Of a DNA stretch of 64,000 bases, positions 24,078 to 39,371 are shown piece by piece. Where the stretch lies: contig JBBIVQ010000005.1 in the NCBI GenBank assembly GCA_037439645.1, forward strand, positions 10,368-74,367, given 5' to 3'. The translations under genes were made by a program, and so were the position numbers. Source of the stretch: Deltaproteobacteria bacterium (GTDB lineage: Bacteria; Desulfobacterota; Deferrimicrobia; Deferrimicrobiales; Deferrimicrobiaceae). Each line of letters opens with the position of its first letter. Position 1 is the first letter of the stretch. The notes below the pieces were generated by a model. That model searched no databases, was not told the origin of the DNA, and was given only the letters and a program-made list of their open reading frames with translations.

Positions 24078-24218
24078 TTCTCCCGTTTCCGCGGCATTGC
24101 GAGGATTCGAAGCGAGCCCGCCGCCGACCGATGAGGGAGGAAAAGCCGGCATGGATGCCGGCGTCAGGCGGGGGAGGGGAGGCTACGCAGCCGGAGCCAG
24201 GATGGCGGAGGCGTAGTA

Positions 24219-24240
24219 GCCGAATCCTCTAGGCGCGCCA
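24219..24240 (+). repeat. Direct repeat of the tRNA-Arg 3' end (20/21 nt identical to 24056-24077); att-like remnant
   Basis: gccgaatcctctaggcgcgcca matches ttcgaatcctctagggcgcgcca with one G deletion. It lies 143 bp downstream of the tRNA. Confidence 0.6.
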
Positions 24241-24355
24241 CTTTTTCCTTTTATAATCAACATCTTAGGTAGCGCCATTTTGGCGCTCCGCCCTTGGCGA
24301 TCTGTCCGGTTGCGCGGGGGTTGCGGTTTTTGCCGAACTTTTTTCCCGATCCAGA

Positions 24356-25747
24356 TCATCGGTGTGTGCTCTCTCCCTCCGCAAGGACCACCTTTTCCCG
24401 TTTCGCCAGGTCGAGCATCGCGGGGGTGAAGCCGCTGCGGCTGAACAGGACGAACCGTTCGTTTCTCTTGCCGGCGTGCCAATCCACCAGTTCCGATTTC
24501 CTGCGAAGGTCCTGGTATACGTCCGTTCCGACCTTTCTGTTGCTCCACTTGCACTCCCCGAACCAGATGGCGCGGGATTCCTCGTCGAGCGCAACCAGAT
24601 CGATCTCTTCGTTCTTCGCCCACCAGCGGCCGAGGGAGGTGACCGGTACGTTCTCCCGTCTGGCCATGTCAAGGAAGATCTCCCGGGAGATCGATTCGTA
24701 AGCATTGCCTACGTGCTGGTCGAATGTGGCCTCGATTTGCTTGAGGACGTAACCCTCGTTGCCGAGTTCCAATCTTCCCCGGTTCGGGAGGACGTACTTG
24801 AACCAAAAAGCGAAGAAGCGGTCGTGCAGTCGGTACAGGCCGAGTCGGCTCTTGTCGGGAGACTTCTCGGTGACGGGAACCTCCTTCTCGACAAACCCCA
24901 GACTCCTCAGAATGTCGAGGTAACGGGAGAGGTGTGCCTTGTCGAATCCCGTGTCGTTCATGATCTCGGAGAGCTTTCTCTTTCCTTGGGAGATGGCCCG
25001 GAGGATGACATAGTAATCCCGTGGTTCACGGAGTTCCTCACGCAGAAGGAATTCCACCTCGTTGTAGAGGAAGGTGTTCCGGGCAAGGATCAGCTCGGAG
25101 ATGTTTCGGAAGACGCTCTCGTGCGGCCGGACCTGCTCCAGGTAGGCCGGGACGGACCCGAAGGAGGAGTAGATGGCCGCGCGTTTTTTCAGGTCCGCCT
25201 CGGGGAAGAATTCCTTCAAGGCGCTGAATTTGAGCTCCTCGACCTTCAGGGAACCGGTCCGGCGGCCGTAAAGGGGAGCTTTCGAGAACAGGACTTCGCG
25301 CTCCATCATCCCGACGCTTGACCCGAGCAGTATCAGGAACAGCTTTGTGTCCTTCAGGTGCGTGTCGATTCCTTTTTGGAAAATGGAAGAGATTGCCCGG
25401 GCGGCACTCACAAGGTAGGGGAATTCATCGATGACGAGTACCAGGCGGGCCTTCGCGCTCTTTTCCCGGATGTAGCGGAAGAACTGCTCCCAGTCCCGGA
25501 AGCCCCCTTCGATCAGGATCCTGTCCTTGAAATATTCCCCGACGCATCTACCGAGGTTTTTCAGTTGCTCCACCTCGGCGACGGTATCCGCAAGGAAATA
25601 GGCGGCCGGCTTGTTCTGGATGAACTCACGGACGAGCCGGGTTTTGCCCACCCGGCGCCTGCCGTAGAGGGGGATGAACCGGAAAGACGGCTGTTCGAAT
25701 TCCCGCTCCAGGAACCCGAGTTCCTCCTGTCTGTCGACGAACCGCAT
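24356..25747 (-). CDS. ATP-binding protein of the 'archaeal-type ATPase' family (AAA+ P-loop N-terminal domain with a DUF234-like C-terminal domain)
   Basis: Walker A GRRRVGKT and Walker B LVLVIDEFPYL. Start was chosen at the internal MRFVDRQEELGFL. The upstream region is AT-rich with TATAAT-like boxes. Confidence 0.75.
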   Translation of the reverse strand: MRFVDRQEELGFLEREFEQPSFRFIPLYGRRRVGKTRLVREFIQNKPAAYFLADTVAEVEQLKNLGRCVGEYFKDRILIEGGFRDWEQFFRYIREKSAKARLVLVIDEFPYLVSAARAISSIFQKGIDTHLKDTKLFLILLGSSVGMMEREVLFSKAPLYGRRTGSLKVEELKFSALKEFFPEADLKKRAAIYSSFGSVPAYLEQVRPHESVFRNISELILARNTFLYNEVEFLLREELREPRDYYVILRAISQGKRKLSEIMNDTGFDKAHLSRYLDILRSLGFVEKEVPVTEKSPDKSRLGLYRLHDRFFAFWFKYVLPNRGRLELGNEGYVLKQIEATFDQHVGNAYESISREIFLDMARRENVPVTSLGRWWAKNEEIDLVALDEESRAIWFGECKWSNRKVGTDVYQDLRRKSELVDWHAGKRNERFVLFSRSGFTPAMLDLAKREKVVLAEGESTHR

Positions 25748-25918
25748 GGCTTCCTCCGATAAGGTGTCGATATGGATTGCGGTATGTATAATCCTGTTTA
25801 GTCTAAACATGATTATACTGATCCAGCGCGATCCTGCAATGGGTTGTTCGGGGTGAATTGCGCATGGTATGGCATAAGTTCGACAATATCGAACTATTAC
25901 CATGTATTGTCTATTTTG

Positions 25919-37417: not shown

Positions 37418-38514
37418 GCGACCCCCAAACCACGCATCCGGGGGAATCGCCCCCCGCGAAACGGCTGAACGTCTTCGAACGGTACTTAAGCCTCTGGGTC
37501 GCGATCTGCATGGGGATCGGCATCTTCGCCGGAAAGGCGTTCCCCGCGGCGGTCGACGTGTTGCGGGGGATGGAGTTCGGCCAGGACTCCCAAATCAACA
37601 TCCCGATCGCCGTCCTGATCTGGCTGATGATCTACCCGATGATGCTCAAAGTGGATTTCACCTCGATTCTCGGGGTGCGGAAAAAGCCGAAAGGGCTGAT
37701 CGTCACGCTCGTCGTCAACTGGCTGGTCAAGCCGTTTTCGATGGCGCTGTTCGGATACATATTTTTCAAGCACCTGTTCCTCCCGTGGATCGGCCCGGGA
37801 CTGGCCGACCAGTACCTTGCCGGGACCATCATCCTCGCGGCGGCGCCGTGCACGGCGATGGTCTTCGTCTGGAGCTACCTGACGGACGGAGACCCGGCGT
37901 ACACCTTGGTCCAGGTGTCGGTGAACGATCTCATCATGCTCGTGCTGTTCGCCCCGATCGTCACGTTCCTCGTCAGCGGGGCCTCGTCCCTTACCGTCCC
38001 CTTCATGGTGCTTGTCTACGCGGTGATCTTCTTCATCGTCATCCCTCTGGCCGCCGGGGTCGTCTCCAGGACATTTCTGATCCGGACCAGGGGGACCGCC
38101 TGGTTCGAGAAATTCCTGTCGGTCCTGCATCCGGTGACGGTCGTTGCGTTGCTTGCCACCCTGGTGTGCATCTTCGCCTTCCAGGCCGACAACATCACCG
38201 CCCGGTCGTTCCACATCCTTCTGATCGCCGTCCCGATCCTGATCCAGGTTTACTTCAATTCGTCGCTCACCTACGGGCTGATGAAGTGGCTGAGGGTTCC
38301 GCACAGCGTGGCGGCCCCGGGGGCGCTCATCGGCGCCTCCAACTTCTTCGAACTGGCCGTGGCCACGGCGATCGCTCTTTACGGCCCCGGATCCGGGGCG
38401 GCGCTGGCCACGGTGGTCGGGGTCCTGGTGGAAGTCCCGGTCATGCTCTCCGTCTGTTCGTTCTGCAACCGCACGAAGCATTGGTTTCCTGTTGCCCCGA
38501 GGGAGGTGCAATGA
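37414..38514 (+). CDS. acr3: ACR3-family arsenite efflux permease
   Basis: A 10-TM profile with ACR3-like motifs. The start overlaps the arsA stop. Confidence 0.9.
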   Translation: MSDPQTTHPGESPPAKRLNVFERYLSLWVAICMGIGIFAGKAFPAAVDVLRGMEFGQDSQINIPIAVLIWLMIYPMMLKVDFTSILGVRKKPKGLIVTLVVNWLVKPFSMALFGYIFFKHLFLPWIGPGLADQYLAGTIILAAAPCTAMVFVWSYLTDGDPAYTLVQVSVNDLIMLVLFAPIVTFLVSGASSLTVPFMVLVYAVIFFIVIPLAAGVVSRTFLIRTRGTAWFEKFLSVLHPVTVVALLATLVCIFAFQADNITARSFHILLIAVPILIQVYFNSSLTYGLMKWLRVPHSVAAPGALIGASNFFELAVATAIALYGPGSGAALATVVGVLVEVPVMLSVCSFCNRTKHWFPVAPREVQ

Positions 38515-38689
38515 CCCATAAAGATATCGAACATGGAATAAGGTGGGGGGAGATCCGGTTGCGCCGGGGCTGCGGCGGTTGCGGAAATCATGGCGCATTC
38601 CGGGCATGTCCTGGATAGACAACTGGGTCGCGCTCATTTGGTACCTTGAAATTCCCCCACCTGCCGGCGAGGATTCGTCCGGACCTTCC

Positions 38690-39327
38690 TTGAACGGGAT
38701 ATCCCCCGGCTCGGAATCCGGGTTCCTTCGGCAACGCTTCGCCGGTTCTGGGCCATGCTGGGCCACGCCCACGGCCAGGTCTGGAACGCCGCGGAGTTCG
38801 CGCGTTCGTTCGGGGTCGGCGAGTCGACGGTGCGCCGATACCTGGACCTTCTGGCCGGGACCTTCGTCGTCCGCCAGCTCACGCCCTGGCACGAAAACCT
38901 GCGGAAGCGGCAGGGGAAGTCGCCGAAGATCTACTTTACCGACAGCGGGTTACTGCACACCCTGATGCAGACGGAAACGAGGGCGGCCATCCTTGAGCAC
39001 CCGAGGCTGGGCGCATCCTGGGAGGGGTTCGCCCTGCAGGAGGTCATCGCCCGATTCGGGGCCCGGCCAGAGGAGTGTTTCTTCCGGGCGACCCACGGCG
39101 GGGCGGAGCTCGATCTTCTGATCGTGAGGGGAAAGACGCGCCTGGGGTTCGAGTTCAAGAGAACGGATGCGCCTCGCATGACGCCGTCCATGAGATCCGC
39201 CCTGTCGGATCTCCGCCTCGATACCTTGCATGTGGTCCACGCCGGCGAGCACCTGTTCTCGTTGGGGGAAAGGACCCGGGCGGTCCCTATCGGGGGACTG
39301 TTCGATGAGATCCGGCGGCTGAAATAG
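38690..39327 (+). pseudogene. DUF4143-domain C-terminal fragment of an AAA-family ATPase (N-terminal ATPase domain missing)
   Basis: RRFWAMLGHAHGQVWNAAEFARSFGVGESTVRRYLDLLAGTFVVRQLTPWHENLRKRQGKSPKIYFTDSGLLH matches DUF4143. Upstream remnants are scattered across frames. Confidence 0.6.
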
Positions 39328-39371
39328 ATCATTATTCCACCCCGGTTCGGTTCGAGCGGTCGGCGGTTCGC

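Follow-up and report, generated by a model that had tools for sequence, protein, structure and literature searches.

Probable Fossil of Two Tandem Integrative Islands at a tRNA-Arg(ACG) Gene of a Deferrimicrobiaceae Bacterium

Identification of the Islands

The analyzed stretch, called the window below, is 64,000 nt long and corresponds to positions 10,368 to 74,367 of contig JBBIVQ010000005.1 (assembly GCA_037439645.1) of a Deltaproteobacteria bacterium from the family Deferrimicrobiaceae. The region 24.2–41.9 kb of the window is, with a probability of about 85%, the fossil of site-specific integrative islands at the 3' part of a tRNA-Arg(ACG) gene, comprising two decayed islands in tandem, designated here A and B. 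Island A extends from 24221 to about 38645 (14.4 kb), with the arsenic resistance (ars) genes included and its right attachment site (attR) lost. The deletion of attR is concluded because the right arm of the island stops where attR starts in four related metagenome loci. As in tRNA-associated genomic islands, the region lies at the 3' end of a tRNA gene (144 bp off, not abutting it), has ends homologous to those of elements bounded by attachment sites (att), varies in presence and content among loci with the same tRNA, and has atypical composition. A bounding pair of direct repeats is missing, as only the tRNA itself and one 20-nt copy at the left edge are present, and 44 codons are left of the tyrosine integrase. 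An earlier note, made from the letters alone, had described a decaying integrative and defense island beside the tRNA; the conserved arms at both ends, the integrase remnant and the recurring cargo agree with that description.

Homologies, boundaries, truncations and composition were computed; we infer how the islands recombined, in what order events took place and what each cargo gene does. Genes were called from the frame signal of G+C content at third codon positions (GC3), and stop-to-stop open reading frames (ORFs) were scanned against Pfam, PADLOC, NCBIfam and PHROGs. Metagenome contigs were scanned with the 50-nt 3' part of the tRNA, which yielded at least 120 loci (numbered with L below).

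Ends of Island A

One tRNA gene was found in the window by ARAGORN, at 24001–24077 on the plus strand, and Rfam concurs that it is tRNA-Arg(ACG); it is considered the integration target. The left edge of island A is a second att copy at 24221–24240 (plus strand), identified in a repeat search, which repeats the last 20 nt of the tRNA with one G missing and begins in the T-loop. Such a 19-mer is expected by chance 0.02 times per window. The left arm follows at 24241–24345 (plus strand), with CGCCATTTTGGCGC and the motif GGTTGCGCGGGGGTTGCGG at 24308. It was aligned in 16 metagenome loci, in each of which it directly abuts a complete tRNA, and the blocks CGCCATTTTGGC and TCYGGTTGCGCGGGGGTTGCGGATTT are conserved. 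Among 101 metagenome loci with the same tRNA over which the arm motif was counted, 18 have it 62–67 nt past the tRNA, together with varied cargo; other loci have native flank or other integrases. In the window, the motif is 67 nt past the second att copy.

The right arm was located at 38551–38645 (plus strand), just past the acr3 stop codon, by its homology to arms preceding attR, with the motif GGTTGCGCCGGGGCTGCGG at 38557. It is 83–92% identical in nt sequence to L011, L112 (two copies), L046 and L038, where the matching block is about 60 nt ahead of a 44–46-nt partial tRNA copy (attR, CTACGAA...CCA). The homology ends at ...CCCCCACCT, exactly where att identity begins in these relatives. 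The arm motif GGTTGCGC-N-GGG-TGCGG has two copies in 64 kb (24308 and 38557), one per arm and both on the plus strand, so that the GGTTGCG motif has the same orientation in both arms; it was also called as repeat family D17. At the right end of island A, attR was not found in the window, and a truncated DUF4143 ATPase gene sits there instead. Also, no third att copy exists in the window even at relaxed settings, as the earlier note had reported. The right boundary, left unresolved by that note, could be placed at about 38645 for island A by arm homology; for island B it was still not found. Similarly, the suggested extent to 39.3 kb stands as far as the ars genes are concerned, but the DUF4143 fragment past about 38645 belongs to island B.

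Relatives behind the Same tRNA

Complete elements bounded by the tRNA and a 44–46-nt attR are L011 (2.6 kb), L046, L112 and L094, and intact relatives span only 1.6–10.8 kb. Tandem elements are also present in L112. The complete 2.6-kb element of L011 has the order tRNA, left arm, ATPase, PRiA4_ORF3, right arm, attR. Its colinearity with the window comprises three blocks (24221–25853, 29338–29931 and 38551–38618), so the remainder of island A represents two cargo inserts, at 25854–29337 and 29932–38550. In other contigs, the same tRNA is followed by the same kinds of cargo gene (ATPase, PRiA4_ORF3, Fic, integrase, HigA-like) in differing combinations.

These relatives bear on the explanation that the region is an ordinary variable part of the chromosome, where toxin-antitoxin, defense and ars genes were gathered and decayed in place and the tRNA is coincidental. 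Host-like codon usage of the ars genes, ARPP-1 and orf102 agrees with it, as do the lack of a working integrase and of attR and the neighborhoods of flanking genes, which differ even among relatives. Many contigs, however, have att-bounded elements at this tRNA with arms that match both ends of island A. The island also keeps an integrase remnant, a second att copy is improbable by chance, and the cargo recurs behind the same tRNA in other combinations. This explanation is largely refuted, and it is the least probable of those weighed here. Synteny was searched via NYN_YacP, the protein adjoining the tRNA gene, and its relatives at 72–76% identity are in different neighborhoods with no tRNA there; a protein-pattern scan of genome contigs found no relative. 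More distant protein homologues bear the names of Thermodesulfobacteriota or Deferrimicrobia-like bacteria, which is weak evidence on the organism. Of the alignment to relatives proposed earlier to delimit the insertion, arm homology thus gave the ends, but flank synteny gave no empty site.

Elements of 1.6–3.8 kb in L011, L046, L038 and L112 are att-bounded, have both arms and encode no recognizable integrase. They are candidate non-autonomous mini-islands.

tRNA Gene and Left Junction

The tRNA appears unoccupied, and island A looks stranded behind the 20-nt att copy that starts in the T-loop. The tRNA is separated from this copy by 144 bp, the first 86 nt of which are a trailer resembling that of L040. 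The left boundary, set in the earlier note at the 3' end of the tRNA, was moved to 24221. The native-type trailer (24078–24163, plus strand) is 80–86% identical to the post-tRNA sequence of L040 and has a hairpin at 24145–24162 with compensatory changes. The same type of trailer was found after the tRNA or after attR, ahead of an MscS-like gene, in L023, L035, L047 and L094; in L094 this flank comes after attR. The 58 nt that separate this trailer from the second att copy (24164–24220, no strand) are an unassigned spacer and match none of the fetched loci. Possible causes of this junction are a remnant of a third element with a deletion, illegitimate recombination restoring the 3' half of the tRNA, or an assembly error.

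In L040 (296–1564, tRNA-forward), the 86-nt trailer of the tRNA gives way to very AT-rich, foreign-looking DNA. Like the window, L040 has its insertion behind the trailer instead of directly at the 3' end of the tRNA.

In the D-arm of the tRNA gene (24008–24019, AGGGCGCGTCCG), the adjoining upstream 12 nt, 23996–24007, are perfectly repeated in inverted orientation. Logan contig L001 and all metagenome loci with the full tRNA carry the canonical D-arm TAGCTCAGCTGG. Contig L001 is 100% identical to 17908–24007, then continues with the canonical D-arm, and then stops. The exact 77-nt tRNA of the window had no match in the scan of genome contigs because its D-arm is aberrant. The anomaly is due either to an error of assembly or consensus or to a template-switch mutation, which would leave the tRNA disabled.

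An assembly chimera at the tRNA, whose sequence many members of the community have in common, is unlikely. The left flank, up to NYN_YacP, would then be joined to the trailer and island of another organism, or the trailer and att copy would be misjoined; the island itself would still be real, and its adjacency to 1–24 kb and the order of tRNA, trailer and att would be artifacts. The inverted copy in the D-arm is absent from L001 and from all metagenome loci with the full tRNA, and the Rfam score falls from 70.1 bits for canonical tRNA-Arg (L089, L040) to 44.8 bits for the window copy. Moreover, the 50-nt 3' part of the tRNA is common to at least 120 contigs, and an exact look-up retrieved the left-flank protein but no record of the ATPase, ARPP-1 or ACR3. 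Such a look-up can also fail, however, if another start codon was called; the SNF2 ORF of island B was likewise not on record in it. Both flanks have similar G+C content and codon usage, and the trailer at 24078–24163 is like L040, which also matches just 5' of the tRNA (a stretch conserved in most loci). No cause is apparent, either, for a de Bruijn path that leads out of the trailer and into the 20-nt att copy again.

Island B

From 38650 to at least 41.9 kb, the window has the remains of another island of this family, arranged in tandem with island A. Of its first gene, which encodes an AAA_14/DUF4143 ATPase, the 3' part is left (38650–39327, plus strand; residues 166–390 of 390), 92% identical in aa and 90% in nt sequence to the full-length gene in L133. 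A SNF2-family helicase of about 839 aa follows at 39372–41891 on the minus strand, identified by Pfam; protein P0241, also 839 aa, is 99% identical to it. At the far end of L133 is a tRNA-like 3' end; from there inward come the same left arm (GCGCCATTTTGGCGC, TCTGGTTGCGCGGGGGTTGCGG) and the genes of a complete DUF4143 ATPase (390 aa), DUF6880, SNF2 and an AEP-TOTE/DEAD helicase. The window is identical to L133 in 90% of nt at 38662–39349 and in 82.7% at 39421–41813 (SNF2). The DUF4143 ATPase and SNF2 genes share one armed island in L133, so the pair in the window would be the remains of island B. In L134, the SNF2 homologue is located between Wadjet-type JetC/JetD genes and a HepT/MNT pair, a defense-island setting. 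A search of the window for another att or arm copy that would mark where island B ends on the right found none.

Integrase Remnant and Phage or Conjugative Origin

The tyrosine-integrase remnant (25985–26116, minus strand) comprises the last 44 codons, with the catalytic Tyr motif LGHHSIQITVDTYGHL, and was recognized by translation, tblastn and PHROG (E = 2.6e-6). It is 95% identical to residues 265–308 of the integrase ORF in L123 and L036, and 96% identical in nt sequence over only 131 nt to L036, L123, L065, L071 and L075. The integrase of island A is thus a non-functional remnant. The copies in L123 and L036 have no N-terminal domain, and a search with integrase-motif regular expressions over all loci found full-length integrases only where the arm is absent (L034, L090).

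An integrase remnant adjoining a tRNA would also suit a prophage or an integrative and conjugative element (ICE) in place of a small non-conjugative island. The Gp49 family, found in the second insert, is phage-derived by name, and decay could have taken the structural or transfer genes. Among the scanned ORFs of 24–42 kb, however, Pfam, PADLOC, NCBIfam and PHROGs recognized neither phage structural or packaging families (capsid, tail, terminase) nor the relaxase, type IV secretion or coupling proteins of an ICE. Also, no megablast match was obtained among 50,697 phage records, and the intact relatives have lengths of only 1.6–10.8 kb. A prophage or ICE remnant is therefore very improbable. 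In searches for plasmid relatives of the island, only weak matches of acr3 on plasmids were found.

Composition and Points against the Islands

The G+C content is 0.592 in 24078–33850 and 0.645 in the ars part, as against 0.660 in the left flank, 0.645 in the right flank and 0.643 as the window mean. AT-rich patches listed in the earlier note at 25.75–26.0, 29.9–30.1 and 33.7–33.85 kb were found again, with G+C of 0.458, 0.448 and 0.450, respectively; together with one at 57.2–57.4 kb, they are the 200-nt windows of lowest G+C in 64 kb. They coincide with junctions between blocks of different ancestry. The codon adaptation index (CAI) trained on flank genes is 0.60 inside and 0.71 outside (Mann-Whitney p = 0.004), with host-like codon usage in ARPP-1, orf102, arsA and acr3. 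The compositional shift is real but modest: of the G+C and CAI check proposed earlier, 24078–33850 proved shifted, but the ars part did not.

Several points weigh against tandem islands at the tRNA. The ars part is host-like in composition. The native-type trailer and the 58-nt spacer separate island A from the tRNA, where a simple model predicts fusion, and with the D-arm aberrant in this assembly, the left junction may be misassembled. The insertion is delimited by homology of the ends and not by synteny, and an isogenic empty site was not found. No full-length integrase of this arm family is present in the fetched contigs, the integrase being linked with the arms by association only. Finally, the right end of island B was not found.

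Backbone Genes and the First Insert

Next to the left arm, island A encodes an intact 515-aa protein with ATPase_2, winged helix-turn-helix (wHTH) and DUF234 (24356–25903, minus strand; Pfam). Its PADLOC match to PDC-S27 (E = 7.8e-48) spans positions 3–444 of 474, nearly the whole profile. The aa identity is 98% to L089, 88% to L011 and 90% to L128, and in each of them the gene is directly after the tRNA. PDC-S27 is a single-gene phage-defense candidate only, and here it is a backbone gene beside the left arm, so the ATPase may serve the element rather than the host. The other backbone gene, PRiA4_ORF3 (29343–29921, plus strand), encodes an intact protein of 192 aa (Pfam E = 7.7e-64), 92% identical to L112 and 80% to L011, and it matches PDB 2i1s with E = 1.7e-32. 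A weak match over residues 17–78 (E = 0.007) links the protein with one chain of DTX3L, an E3 ligase of humans.

In the first insert, the integrase remnant is fused to an N-terminal remnant of a P-loop kinase toxin of zeta type/AAA_33 (26137–26334, minus strand). Its Pfam matches to Zeta_toxin (21.6 bits, slightly below the cut-off), AAA_33 and CoaE cover the P-loop region only. An apparently intact ParD-like antitoxin ORF of 162 aa follows at 26367–26855 on the minus strand (Pfam ParD_like E = 1.2e-11; phrog_16013).

The small Cys-rich protein orf106 (26944–27264, plus strand) is conserved 5' of ARPP-1 in L131 (63% aa identity) and L132 (45%), and its 3' end overlaps the ARPP-1 start by 4 nt. 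ARPP-1 (DUF6569; 27261–28205, plus strand) is intact, 314 aa long, and matches Pfam PF20208 with E = 5e-86; the family has more than 7000 homologues. Its AlphaFold (AF2) model, computed from 35 sequences, has pLDDT 90.4 and pTM 0.90. Foldseek found nothing significantly similar to the model in PDB or BFVD, the sequence matches no solved structure, and a literature search on ARPP-1, DUF6569 and PF20208 found nothing. Invariant residues include PVSCVEQGRW, GAKQNR and His308, which look like an active site. The best matches of ARPP-1 are 96% identical in a contig from ENA and 89% identical in a metagenome-assembled genome (MAG) of the archaeon Candidatus Methanoperedens. The latter suggests either a recent cross-domain transfer or an error in MAG binning.

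An intact wHTH-WYL-WCX regulator is encoded at 28224–29270 on the plus strand (Pfam WYL and WCX; PADLOC WYL). Translation probably starts near 28344, inside an ORF that is open from 28224, and the nt identity to L131 is 94% from 28341. A deletion junction was placed at 28208–28340 (no strand) by blastn of the window against L131, which shares 26985–28207 (88% nt identity) and 28341–29183 (94%) and has 6.5 kb between them. Small ORFs, a PDDEXK nuclease and a UvrD helicase are encoded in these 6.5 kb, and L132 is similar. The ARPP-1/WYL pair of the window would thus be a deletion derivative of a larger module, with 6.5 kb lost. At the end of the insert, the first 13–14 codons (MILTIHRGSKQIG) of a metallo-beta-lactamase-fold hydrolase gene are left as a stub (29297–29337, plus strand); they correspond to the start of a 446-aa Lactamase_B gene in L131 and also match L112.

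Second Insert

The second insert starts with the C-terminal 207 codons of a Fic gene (30057–30677, minus strand), which keep the HPYVDGNGR motif and match positions 55–92 of 93 of the Pfam Fic profile. According to tblastn with the homologues from L093 and L112, they represent residues 245–451 of a protein of about 450 aa, which is full-length in L064, L093 and L112. A frameshift in this gene, claimed in the earlier note, was rejected: the gene is 5'-truncated, and its N-terminal half is absent from every frame. The upstream piece with SSAAIEG belongs to a separate gene fragment of a small VbhA/FicA-like antitoxin (30764–30910, minus strand), with homologues of 64–68 aa in L079, L127, L057 and L086. 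It shows the S-x-x-x-E-G motif of Fic antitoxins, in a frame different from that of the Fic remnant.

This fragment meets the start of Gp49 homology head to head. The Gp49/HigB toxin gene (30887–31078, plus strand) is 5'-truncated and matches positions 16–78 of 90 of the Pfam Gp49 profile; the match begins at residue 45 of the ORF, the upstream part of which overlaps the VbhA-like fragment on the opposite strand. It is followed by the N-terminal part of a HigA-like antitoxin gene (31085–31276, plus strand), cut ahead of the helix-turn-helix (HTH), with 61–62% aa identity to L036, L038 and L123 over residues 3–66.

AbiEi (31313–31996) and AbiEii (31962–32828), both on the plus strand, are adjacent and full-length, and overlap at 31962–31996. 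In AbiE, a type IV toxin-antitoxin and abortive-infection system, AbiEi is the antitoxin and regulator and AbiEii the nucleotidyltransferase toxin. In PADLOC, residues 1–215 of AbiEi match positions 1–214 of 216 (E = 5e-46), and residues 7–282 of AbiEii match positions 3–268 of 270 (E = 9e-91); the Pfam match of AbiEii has E = 3.6e-33 and 115.9 bits against a cut-off of 22.5. The pair resembles AbiE defense islands in its full-length genes in the usual overlapping order and in its neighbors, the PDC-S27-like ATPase, the WYL regulator and remnants of Fic, HigBA and zeta. It differs in that most of these neighbors are fragments and in the NCBIfam score of AbiEi, 43 against a family cut-off of 150; AbiE activity is putative here. 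About 270 nt without recognizable coding separate AbiE from the second cut HTH gene, a truncated XRE/HTH_31 antitoxin gene (33095–33292, plus strand) found by translation and a match to positions 4–36 of 64 of Pfam HTH_31.

A small Cys-rich ORF, orf102 (33338–33646, minus strand), shows a very strong coding signal, with GC3 of 0.92. Pfam has no match for it, and the only similarity obtained is weak and concerns the N-terminal part of HdrA2 in NCBIfam (positions 41–99 of 777, E = 0.0014). Located between the cut antitoxin gene and arsC, orf102 has a CNCQGTC motif just 5' of the first ATG.

The ars genes, all recognized by Pfam, are arsC of LMWP type (33876–34280, minus strand; arsC_pI258_fam 110.8 bits, below the cut-off), arsR (34343–34768, minus strand), arsD (34696–35157, plus strand), arsA (35243–37417, plus strand; NCBIfam GET3/ArsA subfamily 416 bits, above the cut-off) and acr3 (37414–38514, plus strand; NCBIfam 360.8 bits, above the equivalog cut-off). 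A regulator, an arsenate reductase and a pump with ArsD and ArsA are thus present, as in known ars operons, and the five genes form two divergent units. They differ from known operons in being located inside island arms, in arsA and arsC scoring below equivalog cut-offs, and in not being linked to arsenic respiration.

The earlier list of fragments (integrase C-terminus, zeta N-terminus, Gp49/HigB, two HTH antitoxins and DUF4143 ATPase) was confirmed apart from the Fic frameshift, and Pfam, PADLOC and NCBIfam also found the ATPase, WYL, PRiA4_ORF3, AbiEi/AbiEii and the ars cluster intact as listed; ARPP-1 and orf106 were not named there. The intact AbiE pair, the PDC-S27-like ATPase-nuclease and the ars genes possibly are still able to act, with functions assigned by family membership only. 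The intact orf106/ARPP-1, WYL regulator and PRiA4_ORF3 are cargo with putative roles. For annotation, the analysis gives exact island boundaries and about 10 pseudogene fragments that should not be called as genes, and it indicates that the arsenic-resistance genes of the organism ride on a now-fixed mobile element.

Mechanism and Similarity to Known Systems

In active relatives, a tyrosine integrase would recombine the 44–46-nt att, from the anticodon loop to the CCA end, with the tRNA gene. By analogy with tRNA-targeting islands, the crossover would be located in the anticodon loop. The integrated element would then be placed between the tRNA and the partial tRNA copy, attR. Conserved arms with GGTTGCG repeats inside each end are presumed, again by analogy, to be binding sites of accessory proteins. 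The backbone of island A, from the ATPase to PRiA4_ORF3, would have been enlarged by two cargo blocks and later eroded by deletions. A single deletion of about 0.75 kb may have taken the shared middle att, the left arm of island B and 165 codons of its ATPase gene. Island A is predicted to be immobile and unable to excise because the integrase is cut to 44 codons and attR is gone.

An anticodon-loop sublocation class of tRNA-targeting islands with tyrosine integrases was reportedly described by Williams in 2002. The islands share with tRNA-targeting islands the tRNA 3' target (in the relatives, att reaches from the anticodon loop to CCA over 44–46 nt, so the tRNA is restored), arms inside both ends, accessory cargo, compositional deviation and tandem accretion. 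Unlike them, island A has an integrase of 44 codons and a deleted attR, and it starts 144 bp past the tRNA, behind the trailer and a 20-nt T-loop att copy. Cis-mobilizable elements (CIMEs), which are att-flanked and have no integrase of their own, are said to have been described at a streptococcal tRNA-Lys locus. Relatives such as L011 are similar in that att sites and arms are present at both ends and the space between them is too small for an integrase gene, and tandem arrays occur in L112 and in the window. The lineage and the target tRNA are different, and trans mobilization of the relatives is putative. Island A itself is not cis-mobilizable in this sense, as it has no attR and its left att copy is only 20 nt long with a 1-nt deletion.

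The end sequences (att core and two arms) define a family of small islands at tRNA-Arg(ACG) in metagenomes of sediment and groundwater type, and they are usable to harvest cargo rich in defense candidates. The current understanding of genomic islands is unchanged by this feature, which is of an ordinary, well-known kind. Two readings that reach further are, taken jointly, tentative and rather doubtful. Islands with GGTTGCG arms may be widespread, very small and mostly integrase-less cassettes, moved in trans at tRNA-Arg(ACG) and shuffling defense cargo among uncultured anaerobes. Their backbone may be the PDC-S27-like ATPase with PRiA4_ORF3, and their cargo may cross domains, as the 89% identity of ARPP-1 to the Methanoperedens MAG would suggest. 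Similarly, the full orf106/ARPP-1/PDDEXK/UvrD/WYL module of L131 and L132, uncharacterized so far, may be a WYL-controlled system of defense or DNA damage; the fold of its signature protein is confidently predicted, and Foldseek finds no counterpart of it in the PDB.

Regions outside the Islands

Beyond about 42.9 kb, the window encodes respiratory molybdoenzyme clusters. According to NCBIfam, the cluster at 42.9–48.8 kb is a type II enzyme of the dimethyl sulfoxide (DMSO) reductase family. In 42881–50274, the alpha subunit of this enzyme exceeds the NCBIfam cut-off with 1143.8 bits, and genes of a cytochrome b and of a heme-b gamma subunit (EB_dh) were also recognized. A 1407-aa ORF located there has about 500 N-terminal residues without a domain match, and it may represent two genes or an over-extended ORF. 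A 32-nt unit occurs twice, 36 nt apart and 97% identical, at 51714–51781 within a Pyr_redox_2/Fer4 gene (repeat family D14).

An arsenic island reaching 62 kb, with Arx/Aio-like genes at 53–62 kb, was rejected, as the NCBIfam score was 446 bits for Ttr-like and 118 for ArrA. A Ttr-like molybdopterin oxidoreductase and its Fe-S subunit are encoded at 53235–62072; the best NCBIfam matches are TtrA and TtrB, far below the cut-offs, and the enzyme is not ArrA-like. Beside them are genes of a sigma-54 response regulator, a histidine kinase and a protein with two periplasmic domains of phosphonate-binding type.

To the left of the tRNA, a 370-aa ORF at 21973–23085 has as its sole Pfam match a 50-residue C-terminal CysS anticodon-binding domain, and no catalytic tRNA-synthetase domain. 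The same gene call is also present in Logan contig L001.

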